The notes beneath the pieces were generated by a model. That model searched no databases and was not told the DNA's origin. It worked only from the letters and a program-made list of their open reading frames with translations. Both the position numbers and the translations under genes were made by a program. A DNA stretch of 64,000 bases from an uncultured beta proteobacterium. Its GTDB lineage: Bacteria; Pseudomonadota; Gammaproteobacteria; Burkholderiales; Burkholderiaceae_F. Shown here piece after piece: positions 12,272 to 45,188 of this stretch. The DNA lies in contig CAWHKW010000031.1 in the NCBI GenBank assembly GCA_963829995.1, positions 238,358 to 302,357 on the forward strand, in the 5' to 3' direction. Every line of letters begins with the position of its first letter. Position 1 is the stretch's first letter.

Positions 12272-14794
12272 CTAGCTTTTTATTTGGCGCGATTCCGGAT
12301 CGTAAGGCGCTTTGAGTGAGACGGCCGCCGCGTAGCGCTCGCCGGCCAGATCAATCTCGTATTCGCCGCCGTCGATCCACGCACGGTCGGCCGCACCGTT
12401 GGGATGGGTTACCAACCCGAGTGCGACCGGTTTGCCAATCGTGTGGCCGAAAGCCGCCGAGGTAATGGAGCCGACGGGTTCGCCGTTGCGCAGGATCAGC
12501 TCATTGCCCCATACGTTCGTGTGCGGCGCATCGATCACCAGCGAAACGATGCGGCGCCTCAAGGTGTCGCGATCGAGCGCGGCCAGCGCATCGCGGCCGC
12601 GGAAGCCGCCCGGTTTGCCGAGCTTGACTGCGAATCCGAGTCCCGCTTCGTAGGGGGTGATGTCGGGCGAAAGCTCGCGGCCCCATGCGCGATAGCCTTT
12701 TTCGAGACGGAGCGAATCGATCGCGTAGTAGCCCGCGTTCGCGATACCGAGGTCGCCGCCGGCCGCAAACAGTGCCTCGTAGACACCGACTGCGAACTCG
12801 ACAGGAACATAAAGCTCCCACCCGAGCTCGCCCACGTACGTCAAGCGGGTCGCGCGCACGGTCGCGTAACCGACGTCGATCACACGCGATGCGCCGAACG
12901 GGAAGCTGGGCGGCGAAAAATCTGCGGTCGACACACGCTGTAGCAGCTTGCGGGCCAGCGGACCCATCACCGCGATGACAGCAAACATCGACGTGATATC
13001 GAATACTTCGCAGCGCGGCGCGTCGGGCAACGCAGCGAACGCGCGCTCGATCACATCGCGATCGCGCACCGCCTGTGCGCTGCCGGTCACGACCATGTAT
13101 TCGTTGTGGTCGAGCAGCGTGACCGTAAAGTCACTCTCGTAGCCGCCGCGATCGTTCAGCATGCCGGTGTAGACGGTGCCGCCGACTTCGGACGGCACCT
13201 CGTTGGCAATGATCGAGTTCAGCGCGTGCTGCGCGTCCGGACCTTTGATCAGCAGCTTCGCAAACGAGCTCATGTCGAAGACGGCGACACGCTCGCGGCA
13301 CGCGCGATGTTCTTCCGCGACCCATCGGTGCCAGTTCTGATGACCCCATGAATACTCGATCTGCGCATGCTCGCGAGATGGCGCAAAGAAATTCGCGCGC
13401 TCCCATCCCATCTTCGAGCCGAAGCACGCGCCGGCATCGCGCAGCAGCGCGTACAACGGCGAGCGCCGAAACGGCCGTGCGCTTTCGAGCTCGCGATTCG
13501 GCCACGGCATCTTGTAGTGCATGCCGAGCACTTCTCCGATGCGATCGGGCAGCCAGTTTTCGTTCGCGTTGAACTGGTTGAAGCGGCGAATGTCAACCGG
13601 CCATAGATCGAGCGTCGGTTCGCCCTGCACGATCCATTCGGCAAGCGCCCGGCCGGCGCCGCCGGCTGACGCGATTCCCATCGAGTTAAAGCCGCAACCG
13701 ACGTAAAAATTTTCGAAGCCAGGCGCGGGCCCGACGATGAAGTTGTTGTCCGCGGTAAATGATTCGGGGCCGTTGTAGAACTGCTTGACCTGCGCAGTTT
13801 CGAGCGCTGGCACGCGAATCATCGCGTTATCCAGCAGGATCTGAAACGCATCCCAGTTATCGGGAAGCAACTGGAACTCAAAATTTTCCGGAATGCCCCC
13901 GCGGTGCTGCGCGCTTTGCAGCCACGGCGTCGCGTTCGGTTCGAAGCCGCCCATCAGCAAGCCGCCGACTTCCTCCTTGAAGTAAATGTATCCGTCCGGA
14001 TCGCGCAGCACCGGCAGATCGCGATGCACGCCTTCGATGCGATCGGTGACGATGTAGAAGTGCTCGCAGGAGAAGAGCGGCACCGTGACGTCAATCTGGC
14101 GCGCAACCGCGCGCGACCATTGGCCGCCGCACAGCACGATGATTTCGGCGTCGATCACGCCTTCGTCGCCCGCTTTGTTGCGCCAGCTCAAACTCGAAAC
14201 ACGTTTGGTGCGCGTTGAAGAAGAAACTTTCAACCCTGCCGCTCGCACGTTCTCGAAGATCTTTACGCCGCGATTGCGCGCACCTTTTGCGAGCGCGAGC
14301 GTCAGGTCGGCGGGGTTCGCCTTGCCGTCACCGCGCAACCACACCGCACCCTGCAGGTCTTCGGTCGCCATGATCGGATAGAGCTTCGCTGCATCGGCCA
14401 CCGAGATCACATCGCAATCGACGCCGTGCGCGCGCGCCACTGCGGCCGTGCGCTTCAGTTGAATCATTCGGTCCGCGGTGCGCGCAACTGCGAGTGAGCC
14501 GCATTGCTTCCAGCCGGTACCCAGTCCCGTTTCCGCTTCGAGTTTCGAGTACAGCTCGGTCGAGTATCGAATCAGCCGAGTCATGCTCTCGTGAGCGCGC
14601 AGTTGCCCTACTAGTCCGGCGGCATGCCACGTCGTGCCCGACGTCAGGCGTCCCTGTTCGAGCAGCACAACGTCTGTCTCGCCGAGTGCGCTCAGGTGAT
14701 AAGCAAGCGAGCACCCCATGATGCCGCCGCCGATGATGACGATGCGTGCGGCAGCGGGGGGCGCGGACGCTGCGCTCAGGCGCTCGGAGCTCAA
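12272..14794 (-). CDS. FAD-dependent oxidoreductase fused to an aminomethyltransferase (GcvT) domain; dimethylglycine/sarcosine dehydrogenase-like
   Basis: N-terminal GGGIMG dinucleotide fold and a C-terminal GcvT-like folate-binding domain; 840 aa. Confidence 0.75.
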   Translation of the reverse strand: MSSERLSAASAPPAAARIVIIGGGIMGCSLAYHLSALGETDVVLLEQGRLTSGTTWHAAGLVGQLRAHESMTRLIRYSTELYSKLEAETGLGTGWKQCGSLAVARTADRMIQLKRTAAVARAHGVDCDVISVADAAKLYPIMATEDLQGAVWLRGDGKANPADLTLALAKGARNRGVKIFENVRAAGLKVSSSTRTKRVSSLSWRNKAGDEGVIDAEIIVLCGGQWSRAVARQIDVTVPLFSCEHFYIVTDRIEGVHRDLPVLRDPDGYIYFKEEVGGLLMGGFEPNATPWLQSAQHRGGIPENFEFQLLPDNWDAFQILLDNAMIRVPALETAQVKQFYNGPESFTADNNFIVGPAPGFENFYVGCGFNSMGIASAGGAGRALAEWIVQGEPTLDLWPVDIRRFNQFNANENWLPDRIGEVLGMHYKMPWPNRELESARPFRRSPLYALLRDAGACFGSKMGWERANFFAPSREHAQIEYSWGHQNWHRWVAEEHRACRERVAVFDMSSFAKLLIKGPDAQHALNSIIANEVPSEVGGTVYTGMLNDRGGYESDFTVTLLDHNEYMVVTGSAQAVRDRDVIERAFAALPDAPRCEVFDITSMFAVIAVMGPLARKLLQRVSTADFSPPSFPFGASRVIDVGYATVRATRLTYVGELGWELYVPVEFAVGVYEALFAAGGDLGIANAGYYAIDSLRLEKGYRAWGRELSPDITPYEAGLGFAVKLGKPGGFRGRDALAALDRDTLRRRIVSLVIDAPHTNVWGNELILRNGEPVGSITSAAFGHTIGKPVALGLVTHPNGAADRAWIDGGEYEIDLAGERYAAAVSLKAPYDPESRQIKS

Positions 14795-15486
14795 GACGCG
14801 CTTTCTGTCACGCGGAATCTCTGTCTAAATGCTCGCTCGCCAGCTGGTGAAAAGGTCACCACCCGAGAATCCTTTGCGCGCCGAGCCCAGCCGAGTTCGT
14901 AACATCGGTCCAATAGCGCCGCACCGGCGGCGCCTGCAAGATGATGCCGGCGCTCGCTCCAGTCGAGGCAGGTGCGCGACAAACGGCGGCGTTGCGAAGC
15001 CAGCGTTTCAAAGTCGATTCCGATTTCGGCGAAAAACCGCTTGCCGGCGCGCGTAAAAGTGAGTCCGTCGGCGTCGCGTCGCACATAACGACTGTGCTCG
15101 AGGCTGTCTAGCGCGAGCACGCCCAGCTCCCCGGCAAGATGGTCATAGCAAACGCGCGCCTTTCTCAACGCGGGTTCGCGCGGGCTTGAGCGAACCCGGA
15201 CGGCGCCGGTGCGGTACGCCACGCCCATCAGGCTTTCAAGAAGGTGTGCCACGTCGCGGTCTGCGAGCCGAAAGTACCGGTGCCGTCCCTGGCTCTCGAC
15301 GACGATCAACCGCGCATCAAGCAACTTGGCCAGATGTGAGCTGATCGTCTGCTTGGTCAGGTTGGCGACCCCCGCAAGCTCCGTCGCGGTCAGCGCCTCG
15401 CCTCCCACCAGAGCCGTCAGAATCTCGGCACGGGCGTGGTCACCGACTAGAGCGGCGATGCGAACGATGCTTGGGCCGTCTTTCAT
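14791..15486 (-). CDS. ArsR/SmtB-family transcriptional regulator
   Basis: Winged HTH (ILTALVGGEALTATELAGVANLTKQTISSHLAKL). The likely start is MKDGPS. Confidence 0.7.
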   Translation of the reverse strand: MKDGPSIVRIAALVGDHARAEILTALVGGEALTATELAGVANLTKQTISSHLAKLLDARLIVVESQGRHRYFRLADRDVAHLLESLMGVAYRTGAVRVRSSPREPALRKARVCYDHLAGELGVLALDSLEHSRYVRRDADGLTFTRAGKRFFAEIGIDFETLASQRRRLSRTCLDWSERRHHLAGAAGAALLDRCYELGWARRAKDSRVVTFSPAGERAFRQRFRVTESAS

Positions 15487-15559
15487 GGTTCGATCGTAGT
15501 CGAACCATCGCGGCACGGCAAGGCGCTATCGTCGTGCCTTGCGAACACGGCGAGACAAC

Positions 15560-15880
15560 ATGAAGATCACCTGCTTTATCCGTTACGAGATCGACCCGTT
15601 CCAGCGCGATGCATTCAAGCAGTACGCGGACACCTGGGCGCGCATCATTCCGCGCTGTGGCGGCGACCTGGTCGGCTACTTTCTGCCGTACGAAGGAACG
15701 AACAACGTCGCGTGGGGATTGATCGCGTTCGACAGCCTCACCGCCTACGAAGCGTATCGGGCGAGACTGAAAGCCGATCCAGAAGGTCGCTCGAACTTCG
15801 CGTTCGCGCAGGAAAAACGGCTAATCCTGCGCGAAGAACGTACCTTTCTGGAAGCGGTCGAGAGTACGTTTCGTGCGTGA
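15560..15880 (+). CDS. NIPSNAP-family protein
   Basis: [35 protein letters not shown]… is typical of NIPSNAP. Confidence 0.7.
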
Positions 15881-16074
15881 TGGGCATGTCGGTGTAAAAG
15901 TTTCGACGTTGGCACTCTTAGCAGGTGCACACCGTGGGTAAACGAGAACTGCTGGAACAGGTGCTTAAGTTGGATCCGACCCAACGATGGCTCGAGAGCG
16001 CTCGTGGTCGTAGCGCGGCGGCGGGGGCGTGCCGCCGCGAAGAGTCTTGAAGCAACTGCGAAGTAGAGTCAAAC

Positions 16075-16599
16075 ATGCTCGCTCAGTTCCAGGCATTCGT
16101 CGAACAACTATTGCAGAGTCAGGGCACGCTCCCGGAGCTAACCCAAGCGGAATTGCTGTCTATTGCCGAGAATTTGTGCGCCTTATGCGAGACCATTGAC
16201 TGGGGCGCCCTGCAACTTCCAGCAGCAAATCCTGGGCAGGAAGTCTTGCACGAACTGGCAGTGAGTTCGCCGGCCGGGCCCTCGGCATATCTCGTCTCCG
16301 ACGGCATCGGAGTTACAAGCCCGCCACACGAACACCGAACTTGGGCGGTAATTGTTGGCATTCGCGGAACGGAGATGCATACCAAATACAAAGTTGCTCC
16401 GGGCGATTCTCGGGAAGTTACTGTCGACACTTCAATCAGCGTTGGAGCTGGCGAAGTGCTCATGCTGGCAAGTTCAGATATTCATTCAACGAAAGTTGTT
16501 GGCGACGAGCCGACTTATCACGTGCATCTCTATGGGACCGCCTTTTCATCGTGGCCCGCTTTTTCTGCCCGTCGCTATAAGGCGAAGAATGCGACGTAA
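16075..16599 (+). CDS. Cupin protein, cysteine-dioxygenase type I-like (thiol dioxygenase family)
   Basis: Cupin motifs SPPHEHRTWAVIVGIRGTE and HVHLYG. Local GC (~52%) is well below the flanks. Confidence 0.5.
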   Translation: MLAQFQAFVEQLLQSQGTLPELTQAELLSIAENLCALCETIDWGALQLPAANPGQEVLHELAVSSPAGPSAYLVSDGIGVTSPPHEHRTWAVIVGIRGTEMHTKYKVAPGDSREVTVDTSISVGAGEVLMLASSDIHSTKVVGDEPTYHVHLYGTAFSSWPAFSARRYKAKNAT

Positions 16600-16797
16600 C
16601 CGATCATTCGGGCGCGCCACTGACATGCGGCCGCCGCGGCCAGGAGCGGACCTCGCCGCTTCCGCCCGACTATCCGAAAAGCGGACGGCCGAGTAGTCAG
16701 TTGCATCGTAGCTATACTGCATTGCATAAGCGACGCAGCCTGCGTCTCGGTCAGCGACCCCAGCGCTTCCTCTGGGAAACATCCGGAGGAAGTCGCA

Positions 16798-17043
16798 ATG
16801 CACATTTTTGCAAGGGCCCTTGCCCTCATCTTCGTAGTCGGCGGTCTCGGTGTGATCTACGCGCCCAAGGCTCTCGCTGCCGACGAGCCCATTATTGTCG
16901 TTGTGCGACTCTTCCCCGCGGAGGGACGCGAGGACGAAGCGCAGGCGCGGCTTGCTAAGTTGGTGAAGTTCGTCCCAGCGAACAACCCGGGCGTGACCTT
17001 CCGACTTCATCGCTCGACGAAGAAACGGTCGTGTTCCTTCTAG
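16798..17043 (+). CDS. Small exported protein, probably the frameshifted N-terminal part of an ABM-like monooxygenase domain protein
   Basis: Signal peptide followed by IIVVVRLFPAEGREDEAQARLAKLVKFV… The next frame continues …DEETVVFLLV…. Confidence 0.3.
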   Translation: MHIFARALALIFVVGGLGVIYAPKALAADEPIIVVVRLFPAEGREDEAQARLAKLVKFVPANNPGVTFRLHRSTKKRSCSF

Positions 17044-17965
17044 TTCCGTTCCAGCAGCGAAAACCTACAAGACCGTTCACGACCATATCGACGACTGAGG
17101 ATGACTGGTCGATCGCTCGCTTCTCGATGCTGCGCGATCTGCTGGGCGAGAGCCATCAGGTAGAAGCGCGAGACCGCATCACGGATGAAAGAGGCGATGA
17201 CGTCGATCTTGCCGGCGGGAGCGATCTACCTTTCGACCAGATCTGGATGTTCGCAGTTGACGCGACCAATGCGCTGACGGCGGCCGACATCGCCGGCATC
17301 GAAGCGTTTCGGCGCCGAGGCGGGGGGCTTCTTTTGACGCGCGATCACTTCGACCTCGGGAGCGGTCTCTCGAAGCTCTCCGGCATCGGGGCCGCTCATC
17401 ATTTCCACAACGTCAACCCAGAGACGGAGCCCGAACGCCGTACGCGTGACGAAACGTTCCCGACGCAAGCCGCATTGGCAAACTACAGTCAGCCCAAGAC
17501 GGCTACTATCAGGAGATCGAAACGATCACGCCCGTCCATCCGTTGCTGCGCCGGGCGGACGGCGGAGCGATTCGTTACCTGCCAGCGCATCCTCACGAAG
17601 GCGCAGTGAGCGCGCCGACGGGGTTGGGAAGCGCTGCACGGGTGGTTGCGCGGGGTACGAGCAGAGTGACGGGACGACCCTTCAATCTGATGGTGGCGAT
17701 GGATCGCTATCGGCACGATGGGGCAGATCTCGGCCGCGCGGTCGCCGAGGCGACTTTCCATCGCTTCGCGGACTACAACTGGAATACCGCCGCGGGCTGC
17801 CCAAGTTTTGTCAATGAGCCGCCCGGCAACGGGTTGGAGCGCGAGCCTAGGGCGCTAAACGACACGCGCGACTATGCCGCGTTCGTCAAGGAGCACGGAG
17901 CAACGCCGGAGGGTTTGTGGGCACAGCCAAATGAGGTCCAGCTTTATCGCATGATGACCGACTAG
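17031..17965 (+). pseudogene. Hypothetical protein split across two frames (shift near 17480-17540)
   Basis: ORFs 17031-17609 and 17543-17965 read as one continuous polypeptide (…FHNVNPETEPER… / …LLRRADGGAIRYLPAHPHEG…). No confident family assignment. Confidence 0.35.
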
Positions 17966-18174
17966 GTTTCGCCAGCGTCAATATCGTTATCGGATCGCTG
18001 GCGACCTCAATGTCGTCTAAGGGTCGAAAGCGGAAGCTACGCAAACCTTGCGCCGCGAAGCAGACATTGCAGCAACTCTGACGATGAACAGAGTTTGCCT
18101 GTGATCAGCGAGATGCTAAGTACTCGTCGCTGTTCAATTGTTGCGTTCGCGAAACTCTGACTTTGCTTACTGGC

Positions 18175-19542
18175 CTAGGCGCTTTTCAGGTGCCACGCTT
18201 TCGGTCGTGTAAACGCCTCGATGCCGTAGGTCGACAGCGTAAGCCCCATACCGGAGTGTCCAACGCCGCTCCAGGGCAATCGCGGGCTGACGCGGTCGCA
18301 GCAGTTCCAGTACACAGAGCCTGCGCGTAGTTGCGACAGTATCGACTGCGCGCGTTGCTCGTTCGTCGTATATACCCCCGCCGTGAGCCCGTATTCCGTG
18401 TCGTTCATCAGACGCACCGCTTCCTCGTCGTTTGCAACACTCTGAATGCCGATGATCGGGCCAAAGCTTTCCTCGCGCATCACGTCCATCGAATGATTGA
18501 CTTGGGCCAGTACCGTAGGCGCGAACCAATTGCCCGGTAGTGGCAAGCGAGCACCACCGAGAACGAGCTTGGCACCTTTGGCCACGGCGTCGGCGACTTG
18601 CTTTTCGAGCACTTCGATCTGTGGCGCGCGGGTCAACGGGCCGATGTAGGTGTCGTCAGCGGCCGGATCGCCACGCTTGAAGCCCGCCACTTCCTTGCCG
18701 AACGCGTCAACGAAATCTTCGTAAATCGTTTGATGCACATAGATGCGCTCGACCGAGCAGCAGCTTTGACCGGTGTTGTACATCGCGCCGTCTGCGAGCG
18801 ACGCTGCGGCCGCAGCGACATCGACGTCTTCGCGCACGTAGATCGGGTCCTTGCCACCGAGCTCTAGCTGCAGCTTCACCATGCGCGGCCCGAGTTCGCG
18901 CGCGATGCGCTGGCCGGTTGCGTACGAGCCAGTAAAAAACACGCCGTCAACCGGTTGTTTGATCAGCTCTGCGCCGGCAGTGCCATCGCCGATCACGACC
19001 GAAAAAACATCGGCAGGGACACCGCACGCTTGCATCCGCTTGCCGATCTCCAGGCCAGTCAGTGCCGCGAACTCGGACGGCTTGTACAGAACCGCGTTGC
19101 CGGTCAGCAGCGCCGGCACAAACACGTTGCCGCCGACGAAGTACGGATAGTTCCACGCGGAGATGTTGGCGATGACACCGAGCGGTTCGTGCGAAATCTG
19201 TTCGCGCATGCCGCCTGCGTTGTGCACGTCGCGCGCGGCGATCGCCTTTTCGGTCTCAGCTAGAAAAAAGTCAATCCGCGCGGGCAGGCCTTTGATCTCG
19301 TTTCTCGACTGCTGAATCGGCTTGCCGGTTTCCGACGTGAGGACGGCAGCGAGGTGCTCGATGTCGTCAGTCAGCGTGCTGCGGAATCTGCGCAGTGTGT
19401 CGAGCCGCACCGCTAACGGTGTTGCAGCCCAGGCAGGCTGCGCTGTGCGCGCGGATCTGTACCTTGCAGCGATCGACTGCGCATCATCTTGTGGCAGTTC
19501 CGCGATCGTCGATCCCGTGGCGGGATTTCGAACCGTCAGCAT
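18175..19542 (-). CDS. Aldehyde dehydrogenase family protein
   Basis: ALDH motifs ELGGKDP and GQSCCSVER. The likely start is MLTVRNPATG at 19542. Confidence 0.85.
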   Translation of the reverse strand: MLTVRNPATGSTIAELPQDDAQSIAARYRSARTAQPAWAATPLAVRLDTLRRFRSTLTDDIEHLAAVLTSETGKPIQQSRNEIKGLPARIDFFLAETEKAIAARDVHNAGGMREQISHEPLGVIANISAWNYPYFVGGNVFVPALLTGNAVLYKPSEFAALTGLEIGKRMQACGVPADVFSVVIGDGTAGAELIKQPVDGVFFTGSYATGQRIARELGPRMVKLQLELGGKDPIYVREDVDVAAAAASLADGAMYNTGQSCCSVERIYVHQTIYEDFVDAFGKEVAGFKRGDPAADDTYIGPLTRAPQIEVLEKQVADAVAKGAKLVLGGARLPLPGNWFAPTVLAQVNHSMDVMREESFGPIIGIQSVANDEEAVRLMNDTEYGLTAGVYTTNEQRAQSILSQLRAGSVYWNCCDRVSPRLPWSGVGHSGMGLTLSTYGIEAFTRPKAWHLKSA

Positions 19543-20324
19543 GCTTGCTTGCTCTGATTGGCCCCGGTGGCCGCCAGAAATTCCTTCAGGATCGGATCGC
19601 CCGACAGTGTCTCGCTGCTCTTCCAATCGAGAAACTCAGGGTGCCACTGGACGGCGTTCACGTACGAGCCGCCGGTCCAGCGCATCGCCTCGATCATTCC
19701 GTCGTCGGGCGACGTCGCCTCTACTGTGAAGCCTTCGGCAAGCTTCTTCACGCCTTGATGATGGACACTGTTCACGCGCGCGCGAGAAACGCCCGGGTAA
19801 AGATCGGCCAGGAGCGTGTCCGGCACGAATTCGATCTCGTGAAAATTCTGGTCGTAGAGCGCGGCGTCGCGGTGCGTGCCGCTGTCCGGCTGCTGCGTCG
19901 CGATGTCCTGGTACAGCGTGCCGCCGAATGCGACGTTGATCACTTGCAGGCCGCGACAAATTCCGAGCACAGGCTTGCCCGCATCGATGAACGCACGCAA
20001 CAGTTCGATCTCATACTCGTCGCGCACGCGGTCGCCGCTCCATTCGGGCTTCAGCGGCTCTTCGCCGTAGCTGCCGGGCCAGACGTCGGATCCGCCGTGC
20101 AGCACCAGCCCGTCGAGCATTGCCGCGTAATCGTGCAGCGTCACGTCGCCGCGCTTCGTTTCACCTTCCGGCGAAGGAATCACGAGCGCGAGAGCGCCGG
20201 CCGATTGCACCCAGTGAACGATCGACTGCTCGACGTACTGCAGCGTCTTGCCGGTGAAAATCGGACGCTTCGCGTCGGCGTGAAAGAAACACACCGAGAT
20301 CCCGATGCGCGGCCTCGTTTTCAT
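19536..20324 (-). CDS. puuD: Gamma-glutamyl-gamma-aminobutyrate hydrolase family protein (class I glutamine amidotransferase-like, peptidase C26)
   Basis: GICRGLQVINVAFGGTL…HH…WHPE catalytic triad context. The start MKTRPRIG at 20324 overlaps the upstream stop. Confidence 0.75.
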   Translation of the reverse strand: MKTRPRIGISVCFFHADAKRPIFTGKTLQYVEQSIVHWVQSAGALALVIPSPEGETKRGDVTLHDYAAMLDGLVLHGGSDVWPGSYGEEPLKPEWSGDRVRDEYEIELLRAFIDAGKPVLGICRGLQVINVAFGGTLYQDIATQQPDSGTHRDAALYDQNFHEIEFVPDTLLADLYPGVSRARVNSVHHQGVKKLAEGFTVEATSPDDGMIEAMRWTGGSYVNAVQWHPEFLDWKSSETLSGDPILKEFLAATGANQSKQAC

Positions 20325-20334
20325 GCTCTGGCCT

Positions 20335-21468
20335 TCACATCGCCTGCTCGAAAAAGCGGGTGAAATCATCGCGCGAGCAGGGGCGCGGATTGGTCTGGTG
20401 GCAGATGTCCTTTTCGGCGATGTCGACCAGCGCAGGTATCTGGGTCGGCTTCACGCCGACCGCCGAGAGCGATGGCGCGATACCAATCTCTCGCTTCAGT
20501 CGCATCAGCCACGGCACGAAATCTTCTGCGCCGCCCGCACCGACGACGTGCGCAAGCTCGGCAAACTTGGTGCTGCGCGGTGTTCAGATTGAACCGCATC
20601 ACCGGCTCGAGCATCAGCGCGTTCGCCAGCCCGTGATGCAGATCGCACACGGCGCCCAGCGCGTGCGCACACGAGTGCACGGCGCCGAGATCTTTCTGAA
20701 ACGCGATCGCGCCCATCATCGACGCCATCATCATGTCGGCACGCGCAGTCAGATTGCGACCGTCCTTGACCGCGGTCGGCAACGCGCGCGCGGCGATCCG
20801 CACACCTTCAAGCGCTATGCCGTCACATAGTGGATGAAACGCAGGCGACAGATACGACTCGATGTTGTGCGTCAGCGCATCCATGCCGGTTGCTGCGGTG
20901 ACGGCGGGCGGCAAGTCGATGGTCAGTTCTGGATCGGCGAATACTGCTTTGGCAAGCAGCTTCGGCGAGAAGATCACTTGCTTGACGTGCGTTGTGTCGT
21001 CGCTCACCACGCTCGAACGCCCGACTTCGGAGCCGGTGCCGCTGGTCGTTGGCACTGCGACGATGTACGGCAACTCGGTCGTGATCGGCCGCACGCGGGG
21101 ATGGTCCCACGCGTATTCGATAACGTCGCCGTCGTGCACCGCCATCAGCGCCACGACCTTGGCAACGTCAAGCGCCGCACCGCCTCCTATCCCGATCACG
21201 CAATCGGCGCGATGCGCGCGAAACGCGTCACGGCCCTGCATCGCCTGCGACGCAGCCGGGTTGCCGTGCACGCCCGAAAACACGTTGGCATCTAACCCAG
21301 CGCCAAGACTGGCAACGAAATTCTTAAGCACCGGCAGCGCGGCGAGGCCTTTGTCGGTCACGACAATCGGCCGCTTGAAGCCGCGCTCACGCAGATGATC
21401 TCCAACCAGCTTGCTCGCGCCAGGACCGAACTGAATGTCGGTAGGAAAGGAAAAGCGTGAAACGGTCA
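20335..21468 (-). pseudogene. Iron-containing alcohol dehydrogenase with one frameshift near 20580
   Basis: The main ORF (20366-21544) ends in arginine-rich junk. The true C-terminus (…PWLMRLKREIGIAPSLSAVGV…) is in ORF 20335-20517. Confidence 0.7.
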
Positions 21469-23034
21469 TTTGATAGTCACCCAACGCAACTCGAGCACAT
21501 CGCTGGGCCATTGCACGACATCGATGTTTGGCCGCATCACCCACGTTAGCTTGCGCCGATACAGCGGCACCAGCGGGAGGTCGGCGTTAATGATGCGCAG
21601 CGCATCGCCGGTTAGCGTGCGACGCTTTGCAATATCCGGCTCAACGCGAATCGCATCGATCAGCGCATCGAGCTTGGAGTTCGAATAGCGGCCGCCGTTG
21701 AACGCGCCGCTGCCGGCACCATCCCAGCTGCGAATGACGTTGTTGAGCATCGCCCACGGGTCGGTGCCGGGCGTCCAACCGAACTCGAAGAAGCTCGATG
21801 TCGCCTGGGTCAGCTTCGGAAAGAAGATCGAACTCGGCGATGGCTGAAACGAAACGCGGATGTCGATTTGCGCCAGCATCGCGCTGATAGCCTGGCACAC
21901 CGCCGCACGGTAGGTAACGTTGACGCAATCGAGCGCGACTTCGAAGCCGTGTGCATAGCCGGCTTCCCTCAGCAACGCGCGCGCCGCTGCAGGGTCGTAA
22001 CGCAAACGCTTGTCGAGTTCGGGCACATAGCCGTCGACCAGAGGTGACAGGTGCGTCCCGATCGGCGTCGCCTGTCCGCGCAACACTTTGGCAATGATCG
22101 TGTCAATGTCGATCGCGTGATACACCGCGCGTCGCACGCGCAGGTCCTTGAACGGATTGCGTCCTTTAATATTTGAGAACTGCAGTTCATTGCGCGACTG
22201 ATCAAAGCCCAGATACTGCATGCCGATGTCGCTGGTCTCGACCGACTTCAACGCTTTGTCGCGCTTGATCCGCGCCACGTCCTGAAACGGCGGATCGATG
22301 ACAAAGTCGACTTCGTTCGACGCCAGCGCGGCGAGCCGCGTCGCGTCGGCCTGAATGACGGTGTAAGTGGCTTCGGTCACGTTGCCGATGCCGTTGCCAC
22401 TTTTGCCCCACCAATTCGGATTCGCGGTCAACACCAGCCGCCGGTCCTGCTCATACGTTTTCAACACGAAGGGCCCGGTGCCGTTGGCGTTGCGCACTGC
22501 GTAGGTTTCCTGCTTGCCGTTGTAGTCCTGCGGCAGCAATACGCCGTGCTTTTCCGCCCAAGCCTTGCTCATCATCGCGATCAGCCAAAGCTTGTCGGGC
22601 AGTACGGCATCGGGCGCCGAAAGCTGCACGTCGATCGTCAGGGAATCGACCTTGCGAACCCCGGTGACGCCGCGCAGCTGGCTGGCGCGCTGCGAAGTCT
22701 TCGCCAGCGCGCGCTCGATCGAAAAAACGGCATCGTCCGCGGTGAACGGCGCGCCATCGTGAAACTTCACATCCGGCCGCAGCTTGAAGCGCCAAACCGT
22801 GGGCGACGTCGCTTGCCAGGACACCGCGAGCGACGGCTCGAGCTTGAAGCTCTGATCGCGATTGACCAGGCCTTCATAGATCTGAGTGACGACTCGCGTT
22901 TGATACAGCAGGGCGAGTGAATGCGGGTCGAGCGAGTTGGGGTCGAACGCGCTGGCGAAGCGCAGGGTCTTTGCGAATACAGGTGCCGACGCCAGCAAGG
23001 ACAACAGCACCAGGGCGATCAATCGTGCAAGCAT
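21466..23034 (-). CDS. ABC transporter substrate-binding protein, family 5 (peptide/opine/nickel type); orphan, no cognate permease or ATPase nearby
   Basis: Signal peptide and family-5 SBP fold (522 aa). 4-nt overlap with the downstream ADH. Confidence 0.75.
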   Translation of the reverse strand: MLARLIALVLLSLLASAPVFAKTLRFASAFDPNSLDPHSLALLYQTRVVTQIYEGLVNRDQSFKLEPSLAVSWQATSPTVWRFKLRPDVKFHDGAPFTADDAVFSIERALAKTSQRASQLRGVTGVRKVDSLTIDVQLSAPDAVLPDKLWLIAMMSKAWAEKHGVLLPQDYNGKQETYAVRNANGTGPFVLKTYEQDRRLVLTANPNWWGKSGNGIGNVTEATYTVIQADATRLAALASNEVDFVIDPPFQDVARIKRDKALKSVETSDIGMQYLGFDQSRNELQFSNIKGRNPFKDLRVRRAVYHAIDIDTIIAKVLRGQATPIGTHLSPLVDGYVPELDKRLRYDPAAARALLREAGYAHGFEVALDCVNVTYRAAVCQAISAMLAQIDIRVSFQPSPSSIFFPKLTQATSSFFEFGWTPGTDPWAMLNNVIRSWDGAGSGAFNGGRYSNSKLDALIDAIRVEPDIAKRRTLTGDALRIINADLPLVPLYRRKLTWVMRPNIDVVQWPSDVLELRWVTIK

Positions 23035-23037
23035 GTG

Positions 23038-23877
23038 TCAGTTTCGCTTCTTCGTTTGGGGCGGTCCGGCGGTACCCAGTCCGACGCGCGCCGCTTCCGT
23101 ATCGATGATCGAGGATGCAGGCACGTTGGCGAGGTTCACATCCGGTCCCAGCGCAACGATCAATGCCTTCTTGATGTCTTCGATGTCGCAGCTTCGCACG
23201 TCGCTGATCCACGGGCCGGGTAATTCGATCATCACGCGCGACATGTCGAGCGACCGCGTCAGAAGGTCGATCGTGCGCGTGCGCAGCTTGCCTCTTTCGA
23301 TCAGCTCGGCGGCTTCCACCAGCACGAGTGCGGCACCCGCGTCGAAGCAGGTCTCCGCCTGGCCGATCAGCAGCGCGGGCTTGCTCAGCGTTTCTTTGGA
23401 TCCGACCTCACCGAAGACGATCAGTCCTGCGGCCGCTGCATTGCGAATCTGCGAGCGGCGCTGCGTGGCTGTGAGTGGCACGACATTGTCGGATATCTCG
23501 ATCGCCTTGAAGCCGAGCGCGAGCGCCTCGGCGTAGTACGTAGGCAATGCCCTCGCGCCTTGAGTGGCGAACACGTATTCGTGGAACTGCCCTCCAAGAA
23601 AAGGCTGGATGCGATTGCGCCGATACAGCCGCAGCTTCTCGAGTAAAACCGAACGCGGGTAAAGCCGCGCAGTGCCGGTCTTGATCTTCGCAAGGTCAAT
23701 GTAGTCACCGGCCAGGGCAACGAGGTCGCGCGTATAGGCAAGAGGCAGTCCGTCGTCCAGCACCATCGTCTGCCCGGATCGCCGCGGCTTGCGCGTGGAG
23801 CGTTCGCGCGGCAGCGGAACAAATTCGAAGGGCGCGCGTTGTGTGGGTTTGGCCGCAGGCATATTGGTGAGTATCAA
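23038..23877 (-). CDS. (2R)-phospho-3-sulfolactate synthase (ComA) family protein
   Basis: Family-typical motifs (…YIDLAKIKTGTARLYP…KAIEISDNVVPL…) and length ~260-280 aa. It is the first gene of the minus-strand operon. Confidence 0.6.
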   Translation of the reverse strand: MILTNMPAAKPTQRAPFEFVPLPRERSTRKPRRSGQTMVLDDGLPLAYTRDLVALAGDYIDLAKIKTGTARLYPRSVLLEKLRLYRRNRIQPFLGGQFHEYVFATQGARALPTYYAEALALGFKAIEISDNVVPLTATQRRSQIRNAAAAGLIVFGEVGSKETLSKPALLIGQAETCFDAGAALVLVEAAELIERGKLRTRTIDLLTRSLDMSRVMIELPGPWISDVRSCDIEDIKKALIVALGPDVNLANVPASSIIDTEAARVGLGTAGPPQTKKRN

Positions 23878-23915
23878 GTCAGCTATATAGTACTGAGAGA
23901 CCTTGTCGAGGAAAG

Positions 23916-25368
23916 ATGGCTGTGTCCGCTCGCAATCTGCTGGTGATCATGTCCGACGAGCACAACCCGAAAGTGCTCGGCAGCGCGGGGCACCCGATCA
24001 TTCACACGCCGAACATCGATGCACTAGCCGCGCGCGGGACTTCGTTTAGCTCCGCCTACACCACCAGCCCAGTGTGCATTCCGGCGCGCGCAGGTTTCGC
24101 GTGCGGCAAATATATTCACCAGATCGGCTTCTGGGACAACGCCGACGCGTATGACGGCTCGGTGCCGTCATGGCATCACCTGCTGCGCGACCGCGGTCAT
24201 CGCGTGGTGTCGATCGGCAAGCTGCATTACCGGCTCGCCGGCGAAGATCATGGGTTCAGCGAAGAACAGATCGCGATGCACATTTACCAGGGCAAGGGAG
24301 ACCTGCTCGGCTTGATTCGCGACGACATGCCTGCGCGCGGCAACTCGAAGAAGATGATCGCGATGGCCGGGCCCGGAGAGTCGACCTACACGTTCTACGA
24401 CAAGGACATCTGCTCGCGCGCGCAGGTGTGGCTGCGCGAGGAGGGTGTACGCAAGGCGGATAAGCCGTGGGCGCTGTTCGTGTCCTTCGTGGCGCCCCAT
24501 TTTCCGCTGACGGCCCCGCCCGAGCACTATTACCGCTACTGGAACCAGGAGCTGCCGCTGCCCAAGCAATACGCGCGCGAGCAGCGCCCACGCCACCCGT
24601 ATCTCGTCGACTACAGCAACAACTTCAATTACGACGATCACTTCGAGTCGCCGCGGGACGTGAAGAAAGCGCTGGCGGGATATTTCGGGTTGGTGTCGTA
24701 CCTGGATGAAAACATCGGCAAGGTACTTGCGACGCTGCGCGATGCCGGGCTCGAGGATGACACGGTCGTGATGTACACCAGCGACCATGGCGACAACCTC
24801 GGCGCACGCGGTCTGTGGGGCAAGTCGACGATGTATGAAGAGGTTGCCGGCGTGCCGTTGATTCTGGCCGGCGCAGGCGTTCCGGCGGGCCGCCGTATTC
24901 CTACGCCGGTCAGCCACGTCGATGCTTTTCCTACACTGCTCGAACTTGCCGGTGAGAAGATGCCGGAGGGTTTTCCGGGCGTGTCTCTGATCGACATCGC
25001 GCACGGCGCGAAGCCAAAACGCGCGGTGCTATCCGAATACCATGGCATGGGATCGAGCACCGGCGTGTTCGCGATCCGCATGAACCAATGGAAATACGTG
25101 TACTACGTCGGCTACCCTGCCCAGCTATTCGACCTCGACGAGGATCCGGAGGAGTTGCGTGACGTTGCCGACGATGCGGCGTATGCCGATGCGTTGGAGC
25201 AATGCCGCCGCGCTCTGTTCGCGATCTGCGATCCGAACGAGGTGGATCGGCGCGCGCACGCGACGGCAGGCCGAGCTAATAGCGCTTAACGGCGGGCGCG
25301 CCGCGGTGATCGAGCGCGGCGATTTCGGCTTTACCCCGGCACCGGGCACGGTGGCAGATTTTCAGTAG
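23916..25368 (+). pseudogene. Sulfatase (formylglycine-dependent; motif CIPARAG), frameshifted near 25250
   Basis: N-terminal MSDEHN with C-x-P-x-R. The C-terminal …ELIALNGGRAAVIERGDFGFTP… lies in a shifted frame (ORF 25159-25368). Confidence 0.7.
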
Positions 25369-25377
25369 GAGAAAAAA

Positions 25378-26352
25378 ATGATTCGCATACTTTTCGTGGC
25401 AATGATCTCGCTGTTTCTGTCCAGCGCACCCGCGCAGGCGCAGGAATGGCCGACCAAGCCGGTGCGCTTCATCGTCGGCTACCCGGCCGGCGGCGGTCAT
25501 GACTTCGTTGCCCGTACCGTCGCACAGCGGATGTCCGAGACAGTTGAAGCAGACCTTCGTTGTTGAGAACCGCTCCGGCGCGTCGGGCGCGATTGGCACT
25601 GACCACGTTGCCAAGAGCGACCCCGATGGCCATACCTTGCTGATTGCCTCACCCGCCGAAGTGCTGGTCGGGCCGATCGCCGGACAGAAAGTGCCGTACG
25701 ACCCGGCGAAGGACCTGGTGCCTGTGGCGTTGATCGGCGAGACGCCGCTCGCGGTCGGCCATCCACCCATCGGTACCTGCGAACACGATGCAGGAACTAC
25801 TGGCGCTTGCGAAGCGTTCGCCGGGCAAGTTGTCTTACGGCACTCCTGGAACCGGCAGCTCGCATGCAGTTTGCAGGGGAATCGATCAAAGCGATTGGCG
25901 ACGTATTCATCGTTCACATTCCCTATCGAGGTGCCGCGCCGGCGGTGACCGATCTTCTTGGCGGGCAGGTAGAAATCGGTATTGCCGGCATGCCGCCGGT
26001 CATCGGCCACCACAAGTCGGGCAAACTAAAAATCATCGCGGTCACCAGCGCCAAACGATCGTCAGCCACGCCGGAGATCCCGTCCGTAGCCGAAGTGCCG
26101 GGCTTCGCCGGCTTTCACTTCACGAACTGGCAGGGCGTGTACGCCGCTGCGAAAACGCCGCCCGCAGTAATCCAGCGCATCGCGGCGGAGATCGCCAACG
26201 CGGTGCGCGACCCCGCCACGCGACAACGGCTGTTGACCGCGGGCGTCGATCCACTCGGGCTGGGACCCACCGAGTTTTCCGCGTTCCTGGCTCGCGAGCA
26301 CGCCACTTACTCGAAGGTCGCGAAGGATCGCAACATCAAGCTCGGCGAGTAA
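25378..26352 (+). pseudogene. Bug-family (TctC-like) tripartite tricarboxylate transporter substrate-binding protein with at least 3 frameshifts
   Basis: The three ORF pieces (25378-25566, 25499-25948, 25807-26352) concatenate into a Bug-family protein (…FIVGYPAGGGHDFVAR… / …FVVENRSGASGAIGTDHVAKS… / …YGTPGTGSS…MQFAGE…). Confidence 0.65.
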
Positions 26353-27126: not shown

Positions 27127-27465
27127 GCAATTAAGCGGGCCGGCGCAACGGCGCAGTGTCCGAAGTTCTTTAACAACTTGATAGCAACAACAGACTGGCC
27201 ACCGGTGGCGGGTGTGCGAACGCGCATGCCCGTCGCCGGTGGCGAGGCTGACATTCGTCACCTGCTTGAACATCAGGAGCAGGCGCGTGACGAATGCGCC
27301 CTTCGAGCCAGATGCGACGGCGCTCGCCTTGTAAGCGAGAGAAGACCAGGTTGGATTCCGTGGGAAGGGCGCCAAACAGCATCACACCTCGTCCGGTGGA
27401 TCCGGCGTTGCGGCTACGAACCGCGACTACTGATGTTCGATTCATCAACGAGGTGCCAATTTCAA

Positions 27466-27539
27466 AAGGGCGTAGTTCAACAGCAGAGCCTCGGCCTCCA
27501 AAACCGATGATGGGGATGCAACTTCCTCCGCCCTTGCCA
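27466..27539 (+). tRNA. tRNA-Trp (anticodon CCA)
   Basis: Hand-folded cloverleaf. Acceptor AAGGGCG/CGCCCTT, D-arm GTTC/GAGC, anticodon loop CTCCAAA, T-arm GGGGA-TGCAACT-TCCTC, 3' CCA. One C-A mismatch in the anticodon stem. Confidence 0.65.
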
Positions 27540-27543
27540 GCAT

Positions 27544-27618
27544 TGACCCGTGGCGTAACGGCAGCGCAGCGGTCTCTTAAACCGTCAGGTCTTGGTTCAA
27601 GTCCAAGCGGGTCAACCA
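27544..27618 (+). tRNA. tRNA-Lys (anticodon CTT)
   Basis: Acceptor TGACCCG/CGGGTCA, anticodon loop CTCTTAA, T-arm CTTGG-TTCAAGT-CCAAG, 3' ACCA. Confidence 0.75.
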
Positions 27619-27631
27619 GTTTTCAGATCAT

Positions 27632-27707
27632 TCCGCGATGGCCGACACGGCAAGGCAGCGCACTGTTAATGCGCTCGATAGTGGTTCGAATCCACTTCGC
27701 GGAGCCA
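27632..27707 (+). tRNA. tRNA-Asn (anticodon GTT)
   Basis: Acceptor TCCGCGA/TCGCGGA, anticodon loop ACTGTTAAT with stem GCGCA/TGCGC, T-arm AGTGG-TTCGAAT-CCACT, 3' GCCA. Confidence 0.75.
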
Positions 27708-27821
27708 GTTTCCTCCCGGGATGAAAACGCCACGGACGGCGCATTCCGGTTTCGCAGGCGCAGGCCTGTCTGCGAAGCAGCGGTCCGGCGTCGCATGCGA
27801 TGGCTGCAGGGCTTCGACATT

Positions 27822-27897
27822 CAGGGTGTAGCTCAGCTGGAAGAGTGCCGGCGTCGGAAGCCGGAGGCCGCTGGATCGTATCCAGCCACCCTGACCA
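27822..27897 (+). tRNA. tRNA-Pro (anticodon CGG)
   Basis: C1-G72 acceptor CAGGGTG/CACCCTG, D-arm TAGCTCAGCTGG, anticodon stem CCGGC/GCCGG with loop GTCGGAA, T-arm GCTGG-ATCGTAT-CCAGC, 3' ACCA. Confidence 0.75.
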
Positions 27898-27906
27898 ATA
27901 AATGAT

Positions 27907-27982
27907 GGCGATCGTGGTGTAGTGGTCTGCATCGCGTGCTGTGAACGCGCTGGTCCCGGATCGAAACCGGGCGATCGCCCCA
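27907..27982 (+). tRNA. tRNA-His (anticodon GTG) with the extra G-1:C73 pair
   Basis: 8-bp acceptor GGCGATCG/CGATCGCC, anticodon loop CTGTGAA, T-arm CCCGG-ATCGAAA-CCGGG, 3' CCA. Confidence 0.7.
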
Positions 27983-27991
27983 AAGTTTCAA

Positions 27992-28071
27992 CCCCAACTG
28001 ACGGGAATCTCGGCATACCTCGCTGTCTCAGAAACAGCGGCTTCTGCGTTCGAATCGCAGGTTGGGGACCA
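27992..28071 (+). tRNA. Non-canonical tRNA-like gene with anticodon CAG (Leu) but a class-I (short variable loop) architecture and an over-long 21-nt D region; possible pseudo-tRNA or indel-affected
   Basis: Perfect acceptor CCCCAAC/GTTGGGG, anticodon stem GCTGT/ACAGC with loop CTCAGAA, T-arm CTGCG-TTCGAAT-CGCAG, 3' ACCA. The D-arm cannot be folded canonically. Confidence 0.35.
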
Positions 28072-28073
28072 AT

Positions 28074-28148
28074 TGCAGGCGAGAGGGCTGGGTCCTCAGC
28101 GGTTTCATAAGCCGCGCTCGCTCGGTTCGATTCCGAGGCCTGCGACCA
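28074..28148 (+). tRNA. tRNA-Met (anticodon CAT; elongator type, or tRNA-Ile2 if lysidinylated)
   Basis: Acceptor TGCAGGC/GCCTGCG (U1-G72), D-arm GAGG/CCTC, anticodon loop TTCATAA, T-arm CTCGG-TTCGATT-CCGAG, 3' ACCA. Confidence 0.7.
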
Positions 28149-28263
28149 ATCGTTCGAATTGGAGCCAAAGGCGATCCATTTAATCGCGCCGCAATTCCGA
28201 ATCTCGCAACTAGCCGGCTCGAGCTCGCCGTATATCCAGGTGTACTCGCGGAGGACACTGCAA

Positions 28264-28596
28264 ATGGAAAACGGCAAGCATGTTTGGAAGGCTTTACTGT
28301 TGGGCGCGATTCTGGCGGGCAACCTGTCAGCGGCCCGCGCAGATGAACCGGTCGCCACTGGCACCCGCGGCGATCGAATCGACCTGTACGACGAGCAGGG
28401 TCCGGTCTGCCCCGAGGGTTTGAAGCGAGCGGTTTATACGTACCTGCTGCCGAACGGGCTCTCGGGTGAAACAGTCGAGGGCTGTTGGCGCGCGGATAGC
28501 ACGCTTGTTTTCATGGCGTTTGCCGATGGTGATCGCGGCGCAGTGGAGTTGGATGTTTTTACCTGGCGTCGGAGTCCTACCGGTCAACAGCTGTGA
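28264..28596 (+). CDS. Small secreted hypothetical protein embedded within the tRNA array
   Basis: Start MENGKHVWKALLLGAILAGNLSAARA (signal peptide). Followed by hairpin TTGCATCGCGagcCGCGATGCAA. Confidence 0.5.
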   Translation: MENGKHVWKALLLGAILAGNLSAARADEPVATGTRGDRIDLYDEQGPVCPEGLKRAVYTYLLPNGLSGETVEGCWRADSTLVFMAFADGDRGAVELDVFTWRRSPTGQQL

Positions 28597-28689
28597 ACTT
28601 TCTTGCATCGCGAGCCGCGCGATGCAACGTTGATCTTCGGTAAGCCAGCTCAACGCCGACATCTGAGTCGGCTTCGTCGAATCAAACAC

Positions 28690-28783
28690 GGTAGGTTGGC
28701 CGAGTGGCAAGGCACTCCTCTGCTAAGGGAGCGAGTTGTCGATCAGCGATGACGCGCGCGTTCGATCCGCGCACCTACCTCCA
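28690..28783 (+). tRNA. tRNA-Ser (anticodon GCT), class II with a long variable arm
   Basis: Acceptor GGTAGGT/ACCTACC, D-arm GCC-GAGTGGCAA-GGC, anticodon loop CTGCTAA, 22-nt variable arm, T-arm GCGCG-TTCGATC-CGCGC, 3' TCCA. Confidence 0.7.
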
Positions 28784-28789
28784 ATAACT

Positions 28790-28884
28790 GGAAGCGCAAA
28801 CCGATTGGCGACGGTGCCCGCCTTGAAAGCGGTGTGAGCTGCTATCAGCAGCCTTGGGCGTTCGACTCGACCCCGCTTCCGCCA
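28790..28884 (+). tRNA. Irregular tRNA-Ser-like gene (anticodon TGA); the acceptor pairs perfectly but the D and T arms do not fold cleanly
   Basis: Acceptor GGAAGCG/CGCTTCC with 3' GCCA, anticodon loop CTTGAAA, hairpin variable arm GCTGC…GCAGC. The T region GGGCGTTCGACTCGACCCC is imperfect. Confidence 0.35.
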
Positions 28885-28888
28885 ACTC

Positions 28889-28963
28889 GAACCGCTTGAC
28901 TTCTGGTGAGGTCACTAGGCCTTCAACCTAGCAAGACGGGTTCGATCCCCGTGCGGTTTACCA
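28889..28963 (+). tRNA. tRNA-Glu (anticodon TTC)
   Basis: Acceptor GAACCGC/GCGGTTT, D-arm GACT/GGTC, anticodon stem CTAGG/CCTAG with loop CCTTCAA, 4-nt variable loop, T-arm ACGGG-TTCGATC-CCCGT, 3' ACCA. Confidence 0.75.
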
Positions 28964-28965
28964 AC

Positions 28966-29042
28966 TGCGGCGTCGCCAAGTGGCCCAAGGCACCTGGCTC
29001 TGAACCAGGTATTCGTAGGTTCGACTCCTACCGCCGCTGCCA
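28966..29042 (+). tRNA. tRNA-Gln (anticodon CTG)
   Basis: Starts UGCGGCG like E. coli tRNA-Gln, D-arm GCC-AAGTGGCCCAA-GGC, anticodon stem CCTGG/CCAGG with loop CTCTGAA, T-arm GTAGG-TTCGACT-CCTAC, 3' GCCA. Position 1-72 is U-U. Confidence 0.7.
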
Positions 29043-29058
29043 ATTGATTCTTGATATC

Positions 29059-29134
29059 GCATCCCAAGCTGACCAGGTGGCAGCGCCGGTTTGAAGCACC
29101 GGAGGGTGTGGCTCGATACCACAGGGATGCACCA
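29059..29134 (+). tRNA. tRNA-Phe (anticodon GAA)
   Basis: Acceptor GCATCCC/GGGATGC, D-stem GCTG/CAGC, anticodon stem CCGGT/ACCGG with loop TTGAAGC, T-arm TGTGG-CTCGATA-CCACA, 3' ACCA. Confidence 0.75.
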
Positions 29135-29226
29135 AACACGGCGCATTGACGTAGACGGATGCGTACCCGGCTGTCGACCGGAGGAGAGCGGATCAATGCC
29201 GCTATGCGCCGCCACTAAAATCTTAG

Positions 29227-30447: not shown

Positions 30448-30573
30448 GCGTCGTCGTGAATATTCAGTAGCACAGCCGCAGAACGGTCGGCGGCGCACGC
30501 CGACCGTTCGCCCTACCGTGCAGCCCGTGAAAGCTCGCTACGAGCCATCCTGTTTCAAACGTAAGAATCCGGG

Positions 30574-43788: not shown

Positions 43789-43793
43789 GCCAG

Positions 43794-45188
<1,395 letters not shown>

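Follow-up and report, generated by a model that had tools for sequence, protein, structure and literature searches.

What does a homologue of the phosphosulfolactate (PSL) synthase ComA do at the head of a row of genes for alcohol and aldehyde oxidation? The locus that raises this question lies at positions 18175-25368 of a 64,000-nucleotide stretch of DNA (the window) from an uncultured beta proteobacterium (assembly GCA_963829995.1, contig CAWHKW010000031.1). To our knowledge, the one function described for ComA is to make sulfonates, on the way to coenzyme M and sulfolactate. A preliminary description of the sequence had joined the ComA-like gene and the four minus-strand genes behind it into one catabolic operon. 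Alcohol and aldehyde dehydrogenases would act there on a route of the type 2,3-dihydroxypropanesulfonate/sulfolactaldehyde/sulfolactate and ComA would remove the sulfonate group.

The comparison of the locus with its relatives gives a different answer. The interval is probably the junction of two functionally independent modules, which stand back to back only in a single clade of uncultivated Burkholderiaceae from soil. Module A groups the ComA-like gene with a sulfatase and a TctC-type binding protein. Module B contains a family-5 solute-binding protein (SBP5), an iron-containing alcohol dehydrogenase (Fe-ADH), a Peptidase_C26 hydrolase (C26) and an aldehyde dehydrogenase (ALDH). The desulfonation hypothesis largely fails, and a testable, widespread and uncharacterized module emerges.

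Partners of the ComA-like gene across genomes

The places and families first given for the seven genes of the interval are all confirmed by Pfam. Three of the genes form module A. The ComA-like gene (23038-23862, minus strand) encodes a TIM-barrel enzyme of 274 residues (PF02679, E = 1.9e-53, 181.9 bits against a cut-off of 25.2). On the plus strand are placed a cytoplasmic, Cys-type, choline-sulfatase-like sulfatase (23916-25368; Pfam Sulfatase PF00884, 155.8 bits, and SGSH_C) and a periplasmic binding protein of the TctC/Bug type (25378-26352; open reading frame (ORF) fragments in three frames), which belongs to the tripartite tricarboxylate transporters (TTT). None of the proteins of the seven-gene interval reaches an NCBIfam equivalog cut-off.

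Homologs of the ComA-like gene are numerous and strongly conserved in uncultivated soil Burkholderiales (76-98% identity). A scan of GTDB species-representative genomes yielded a set of 54 loci, and the counts given here use the 33 that extend 4 kb or more to each side. The loci were annotated by tblastn anchoring and Pfam scans of hand-picked ORFs; ORF calling by length and GC3 is unreliable in this high-GC DNA. For the distant clade members, the context lies mostly on contigs of 1-3 kb and one locus is informative.

A sulfatase is encoded within 6 kb of the ComA-like gene in 22 of the 33 loci, and a DUF3604-like protein of about 740 residues within 3.5 kb in nine. One or the other stands beside the ComA-like gene in 31 loci, and the two are never found together (0/33). 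TctC lies within 3.5 kb in 26/33 loci. The farther flanks serve as background: no sulfatase gene is present in 234 kb, and the TctC density of 0.058 per kb corresponds to an expected adjacency of 0.33 (binomial P ~1e-7, a value that overstates independence because the loci are phylogenetically related). On the other hand, the SBP5/ADH/C26 block occurs near the ComA-like gene in 2/33 loci, both from the clade with a ComA identity of at least 87% to the window. The ComA-like gene is thus without the block in 31/33 loci, which speaks against the single operon of the preliminary description. The arrangement of five genes is kept in close relatives (L005 and L008-L013), but the adjacency is restricted to this one clade.

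The partnership between the ComA-like gene, the sulfatase or the DUF3604-like protein, and TctC persists while gene orders vary. The close relative L005 (96% identity) has the order of the window, with one more gene, for an enoyl-CoA hydratase, inserted after C26 and before ALDH. In relatives with an identity of about 79%, all that is left is a sulfatase-TctC-sulfatase group divergent from ComA, with unrelated genes downstream. The order ComA-TctC-sulfatase-sulfatase-TctC runs on one strand in L043. The DUF3604-like gene takes part in other arrangements: LysR divergent from DUF3604-like-ComA-TctC-TctB-TctA, flanked by housekeeping genes (L040); GntR-TctC-ComA-DUF3604-like with a TauD gene nearby (Allopusillimonas soli, L036); and Metallophos-ABC permease-DUF3604-like-ComA-unknown-TonB receptor (Aquabacter sediminis, L054). 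A Bradyrhizobium locus has an NMT1/SsuA-like binding protein among the neighbors of its ComA-like gene. In one distant clade member, a single locus, an amidase gene is placed directly upstream. The LysR and GntR regulators are assigned to no specific family by NCBIfam. TctA and TctB are both present in the L040 operon; neither adjoins the TctC of the window.

The sulfatase of the window carries the formylglycine motif C-I-P-A-R, within SPVCIPARAG. Choline sulfatase (BetC) is its best model and the Cys-type motif is common to both. However, the score of 311.7 bits does not reach the cut-off of the NCBIfam model chol_sulfatase (TIGR03417, 433.45 bits), and the relatives have no linked betaine genes. 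The Phosphodiest and PehA models also match the sulfatase weakly. The DUF3604-like proteins (10824-13070 in L036, 7672-9924 in L040 and 7662-9995 in L054) have about 740-780 residues, a weak DUF3604 match and the PHP-type metal motifs DLHGQ and NSDGH, and no solved relative is found by sequence. The exchange of the sulfatase for the DUF3604-like protein looks like a non-homologous displacement, and the mutually exclusive partners provide a handle on the function of the latter.

The TctC of the window is a standard receptor of the Bug family, as in the TctCBA and SlcHFG-type TTT importers. An N-terminal signal sequence is visible, and the repaired form is 93% identical to the TctC of L005, which is annotated with PF03401. 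TctC receptors bind carboxylates; choline sulfate, unlike these ligands, is not a carboxylate. The searchable literature yielded no description of the ComA-like/hydrolase/TctC module or of the ComA-like clade with its variant loops, and the module appears undescribed.

A probable gamma-glutamylation block that occurs without ComA

The four minus-strand genes behind ComA belong to module B. SBP5 (21466-23034; SBP_bac_5, E = 1.9e-78) is periplasmic and has a signal peptide. It is followed by the Fe-ADH (20335-21469; Pfam Fe-ADH and ADH_Fe_C, E = 1.5e-44), by the PuuD-like gamma-glutamyl amide hydrolase C26 (19536-20324, 262 residues; PF07722, E = 4e-58, 197 bits) and by the NAD(P)-dependent ALDH (18175-19542, 455 residues; Pfam Aldedh PF00171, E = 2e-131). 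Start codons were corrected for ComA (ATG at 23862, not TTG at 23877), C26 (20324) and ALDH (19542). The distal genes of the module, also on the minus strand and assigned by Pfam, encode an ArsR-type regulator (14791-15516), an N-demethylating-type oxidoreductase with DAO, FAO_M and GCV_T domains (12272-14794), an alanine dehydrogenase (AlaDH; 11145-12263) and an EamA transporter (10269-11120). Between ALDH and a NIPSNAP gene extend 2.3 kb (15880-18175) with no ORF that has a Pfam match; the close relative L005 does not have this stretch, and NIPSNAP directly follows ALDH there.

C26 homologs at 68-75% identity lead to loci in which the block is present and ComA is not. In L062, the genes are placed on one strand in the order GS-like-SBP5-Fe-ADH-C26-ALDH-DAO/FAO_M/GCV_T-AlaDH-EamA, where GS-like stands for a glutamine synthetase-like gene, and the order in L063 is similar. 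A metagenome-assembled genome (MAG) of Gemmatimonadota (L064) has SBP5-Fe-ADH-C26-ECH-ALDH, where ECH is an enoyl-CoA hydratase, and farther on DAO/GCV_T-AlaDH. The distal genes come in the same order after ALDH in L062, L063, L064 and L009. The window holds orthologs of the genes of these ComA-free blocks at 70-84% identity. Its SBP5 orthologs (73-77% identical) come second, after the GS-like gene, in L062 and first in the block of L064. The comparison does not support the participation of the two dehydrogenases in a ComA-dependent desulfonation, since other Burkholderiales and the Gemmatimonadota MAG have their block but no ComA beside it.

The window also contains a GS-like gene, of the gamma-glutamyl-amine synthetase type (43797-45182, minus strand; Pfam Gln-synt_C), at 20.8 kb from SBP5. 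Its product is 80% identical over 466 residues to that of the gene directly before SBP5 in L062, and scores under the GlnA and PuuA equivalog cut-offs. The upstream neighbors of the GS-like gene are a zinc-ribbon protein (window) and DUF502. Because the DUF502 gene is found upstream of the GS-like gene in both the window and L062, about 20.8 kb came between the GS-like gene and SBP5 in this lineage. Within this distance lie the ComA/sulfatase/TctC module, an array of tRNA genes with RtcB, and a gene for a RuBisCO-like protein.

The C26 hydrolase had been taken at first as a pointer to gamma-glutamyl intermediates, and the GS-like gene at the head of the SBP5-ADH-C26-ALDH block of the relatives bears this out. 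The catalytic motifs GICRG and HPE (Cys-His-Glu triad) are visible in the C26 translation, which scores 105 bits against the NCBIfam PuuD model (cut-off 266, not reached). The best NCBIfam match of ALDH is succinic semialdehyde dehydrogenase (378 bits against a cut-off of 521). A crotonase/enoyl-CoA hydratase gene lies between C26 and ALDH in L005 (12441-13361) and L064 (7081-7980); it is not found in the window, L008, L009 or L012.

Module B resembles the Puu/Pau pathway of polyamine degradation (PuuA, PuuB, PuuC and PuuD) in its GS-like synthetase, ALDH and C26 hydrolase. On the other hand, all its proteins stay under the Puu equivalog cut-offs, and it adds the family-5 binding protein, the DAO/GCV_T oxidase and the alanine dehydrogenase. 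No PuuB-type oxidase is present in the block of the window, and the Fe-ADH stands where this amine oxidase would be. The substitution suggests that the substrate bears an alcohol rather than a second amine. The same enzyme logic is found in the ethanolamine route of Streptomyces coelicolor (GlnA4, SCO1611, SCO1612 and SCO1615), modeled with a GS-like ligase, an alcohol dehydrogenase, an ALDH and an amidohydrolase that yields glutamate and an amino acid, and predicted also in Chromohalobacter salexigens (PMC6529630, PMC9397018). The final hydrolase of that route is of the formylglutamate amidohydrolase family (PMC6529630), whereas module B has a Peptidase_C26.

The appropriate reading of the ADH/C26/ALDH block is gamma-glutamyl amine catabolism rather than sulfonate metabolism, and the family logic of module B is well supported. 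The pathway would proceed by gamma-glutamylation, and its substrate would be a primary amine that bears an alcohol group. The GS-like enzyme would join the amine to glutamate. In this protected form, the amino alcohol would be oxidized by Fe-ADH and ALDH, and the C26 hydrolase would split the resulting gamma-glutamyl amino acid into glutamate and the amino acid. The latter would subsequently be processed by the downstream oxidase and the alanine dehydrogenase. AlaDH and the N-demethylase-type oxidase hint at a substrate other than plain ethanolamine.

One operon or two modules

The tight packing noticed on the minus strand is real. A 3-nt gap separates ComA from SBP5, SBP5 and ADH overlap by 4 nt (ATGA), ADH and C26 are 10 nt apart and C26 overlaps ALDH by 7 nt. 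Five genes packed in this way and probably co-transcribed, in an arrangement conserved in L005 and L008-L013, speak for a single catabolic operon for a C3 or amino sulfonate. The substrate would be conjugated to glutamate, oxidized by Fe-ADH and ALDH, deglutamylated by C26 and desulfonated by ComA in reverse, and a sulfonated amino alcohol could in principle fit the GS-like, ADH, ALDH and C26 enzymes. Nevertheless, this explanation is very unlikely. The block with its GS-like gene exists without ComA, and the ComA-like gene lacks the block in nearly all the counted loci. In addition, no kinase is present to make the 2-phospho substrate, and the GS-like gene of the window lies 20 kb away. The case calls for caution in annotation: genes that are tightly packed in one genome may belong to modules with no relation to each other.

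A direct link, with the sulfatase as the source of an amino alcohol for module B, was also considered and set aside: sulfatase, ComA and TctC mostly occur without module B, and TctC is a receptor for carboxylates.

The ComA-like and sulfatase genes start 53 bp apart (23863-23915 between them; 20-70 bp in relatives). This spacing leaves almost no space for two divergent promoters. The scan of 23863-23915 showed neither a sigma-70-like site nor an inverted repeat. The promoter and terminator scan gave nothing that exceeds shuffle expectation, and the repeat scan nothing notable.

The ComA-like protein

The identification of a ComA homologue holds. The protein has about 30% identity to the solved PSL synthases (1QWG and 1U83) and scores 154 bits with the NCBIfam model arch_ComA (TIGR03849), under the cut-off of 280. 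Its AlphaFold model has a mean predicted local distance difference test (pLDDT) score of 70. The predicted structure matches the (beta/alpha)8 fold of 1QWG and 1U83, which are the top natural matches in Foldseek (template modeling (TM) scores from 0.74 to 0.82-0.84): 1QWG with E = 9e-18 and TM 0.74/0.81, and 1U83 with E = 3e-15.

A search of 1.84 billion cluster representatives yielded 922 relatives. The window protein was aligned with 15 of them (30-69% identity) and with the Methanocaldococcus jannaschii and Bacillus subtilis enzymes. The 16 clade members and both solved enzymes share the invariant residues D36, D56, K59, K76, E95, E122, E152, E183, E186, E213 and R259. These residues would be Mg or substrate ligands, roles reportedly described for ComA by Wise and colleagues in 2003. 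On the other hand, the RESGxG loop of both solved PSL synthases is deleted (6 residues) in 16/16 clade members, the window protein among them, and is replaced by EAAE, the 6-residue gap and L. All aligned clade members have also lost 4 residues after the GSK motif and gained 11, PWIxxxxxxD, after the ELPGP strand. The loss of conserved Mg- or sulfite-binding residues had been proposed as the finding that would speak against the desulfonation route, and the outcome is mixed: the acidic core is conserved, but the loop is not.

The ComA-like protein resembles the PSL synthases ComA, YitD and XcbB (EC 4.4.1.19) in Pfam family, TIM barrel and invariant Asp/Lys/Glu core, and differs from them in the lost loop, the short deletion, the insertion and the score under the equivalog cut-off. 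The neighborhood differs as well, with ester hydrolases and the binding protein of an importer. Among the Pfam-annotated neighbors in the window and in L001, L002, L005, L036, L040, L043, L053 and L054, there are no ComB, ComC, ComDE or Xcb genes. By its sequence, the protein represents a distinct clade of the PF02679 family, in which the enolase-type catalytic machinery is probably retained. The acidic core is kept, the RESGxG loop is lost and 11 residues are inserted; substrate recognition has therefore probably changed, and the substrate probably differs from that of the PSL synthases.

Proposed role of module A

A catabolic role for the ComA-like protein, as first suggested, or a scavenging one is plausible, as an uptake binding protein and ester hydrolases adjoin it in nearly all the genomes compared; its partnership with the alcohol and aldehyde dehydrogenases is not supported. 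From this context we infer the following steps. A TTT transporter with TctC as receptor would import an organic ester that bears a carboxylate. A cytoplasmic ester hydrolase would then de-esterify it, the sulfatase in the window and the PHP-like DUF3604-like protein elsewhere. Subsequently, the Mg-binding acidic core of the ComA-like enzyme could carry out an enolase-type abstraction of the alpha-proton and a beta-elimination, or the reverse addition. The substrate of this last step would be a C3 acid not identical to PSL, and the most plausible result would be the release of sulfite for sulfur scavenging. Import, de-esterification and ComA-type beta-elimination that frees sulfite make up the likeliest of the models for module A and are proposed tentatively. 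What the comparison shows directly are the gene content, the co-occurrence, the altered loops and the frameshifts; the chemistry and the substrates of both modules are inferred.

The fold and the acidic core of the ComA-like protein would also suit a biosynthetic module A. The protein would then be a true PSL synthase, and a hydrolase of sulfatase or PHP fold would be a non-homologous substitute for the phosphatase ComB in the formation of sulfolactate or the trapping of sulfite. Both alternative partners belong to families that contain phosphoesterases, and the PHP-like motifs of the DUF3604-like protein and the weak Phosphodiest and PehA matches of the sulfatase point the same way. However, an importer is needless for biosynthesis, and the uptake binding protein is the most constant neighbor of the ComA-like gene, with the full TctCBA set in L040. 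The missing RESGxG loop, the unreached equivalog cut-off and the formylglycine motif, typical of sulfate-ester hydrolases, make this explanation quite improbable.

A departure of the ComA-like clade from sulfur chemistry is unlikely, if somewhat easier to accommodate. The enzyme would act as an enolase or lyase on a de-esterified hydroxy acid, and the sulfatase would only prepare the substrate. The loop deletion and the insertion common to all clade members, at 30-69% identity, would agree with it, as would the amidase gene upstream of one distant member, one more neighbor of the hydrolase type. Against it stand the recurrent sulfur-related neighbors (the sulfatases in two thirds of the counted loci, TauD in A. 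soli and the NMT1/SsuA-like protein in Bradyrhizobium), and there is no positive evidence for another substrate.

Ester sulfates and sulfonates hold most soil sulfur. Across more than 50 genomes of soil bacteria, each at species level, the distinct and well-conserved ComA-like clade goes together with importers and ester hydrolases, which suggests an unexplored reaction of organosulfur or organophosphate turnover. In its widest form, the sulfite-releasing proposal is speculative. The loop-variant ComA-like clade, an interchangeable ester hydrolase and a TTT importer might together form an unrecognized two-enzyme pathway by which soil Beta- and Alphaproteobacteria take up an anionic organosulfur ester with a C3 skeleton and cleave it. 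The ComA fold would act there as a sulfite-releasing lyase and not as a synthase, and in the clade of the window the module would in addition be joined to a gamma-glutamyl amino-alcohol operon at the end nearest the promoter.

Several observations weigh against two independent modules and a sulfite-releasing module A. The co-occurrence counts are drawn from related genomes, most of them MAGs. At the ComA/SBP5 boundary, no terminator-like site above chance is present in the clade of the window; together with the 3-nt gap, this makes it probable that the two modules are co-transcribed there. Since six or more MAGs, each at species level, preserve this arrangement, a functional link specific to the clade is conceivable. 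PHP-type enzymes are known as phosphoesterases, not as sulfatases. A partner of this type would fit a phosphatase, the counterpart of ComB in biosynthesis, at least as well as a desulfating enzyme. Finally, the sulfatase and TctC genes are frameshifted in the window, and module A may be inactive in this sequence.

Frameshifts in Fe-ADH, sulfatase and TctC

Alignment with four relatives reveals single-nucleotide insertions specific to the window in three genes. The insertion in Fe-ADH is placed near 20570-20574 and leaves the last ~80 codons out of frame; the Pfam match ends near residue ~330 and the C-terminus runs on in the other frame. In the sulfatase, the insertion near 25258-25262 shifts the last ~35 codons, and position 25368 is the end of the gene only after frameshift correction. 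TctC has insertions near 25539, 25756 and 25866 and is read in three frames. The removal of one base per site restores full-length proteins of 377 (Fe-ADH), 483 (sulfatase) and 323 (TctC) residues, which are 93%, 96% and 93% identical to those of L005, respectively (the intact TctC of L005 has 326 residues). No such insertion is seen in ComA, SBP5, C26, ALDH, GS-like, DAO/GCV_T or AlaDH. Other same-strand ORF overlaps in the window, suspected as frameshifts, correspond to ordinary over-extension of ORFs.

The three genes could be genuine young pseudogenes, with both modules in decay, or the insertions could be consensus errors of a long-read MAG. Decay has an appreciable chance. It would agree with five window-specific insertions spread over three genes, of which TctC has three inside 330 bp, with their absence from the other genes compared and with insertion sites that lie outside homopolymers. 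On the other hand, the sequence is part of a 517-kb MAG contig in NCBI/ENA, and similar gene fragmentation is found in related metagenome and MAG contigs. The genes show no damage other than the single added bases, and their identity to intact orthologs is 93-96%. The balance leans slightly to assembly error.

Other features of the window

The DNA between SBP5 and the GS-like gene contains a dense plus-strand tRNA array (27386-31137). ARAGORN predicts 11 tRNAs in 27386-29134 and a tRNA-Ser(AGA) at 30986-31070, and Rfam gives a tRNA-like match at 31072-31137. A gene for the RNA ligase RtcB (29227-30447) lies inside the array; L005 has an RtcB fragment beside TctC. A RuBisCO-like gene (42673-43863, minus strand) is placed immediately downstream of the GS-like gene, the place of SBP5 in L062. 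Its product matches RuBisCO_large and gives 156 bits with the MtnW enolase model, under the cut-off of 409.

On the minus strand, the region 34834-38014 starts with a STAND NTPase N-terminus joined to an adenylate/guanylate cyclase domain (36950-38014). Next come a TPR-rich ORF (35234-36763) and a further ORF that overlaps it (34834-35484). These ORFs may represent one large signaling protein, possibly split. Two phospholipase-D-family proteins (PLDc_2) are encoded at 8568-10205 (minus strand) and 51869-53140 (plus strand). A ligase-associated DEXH-box helicase, named from an NCBI cluster member, is placed at 56159-58780.

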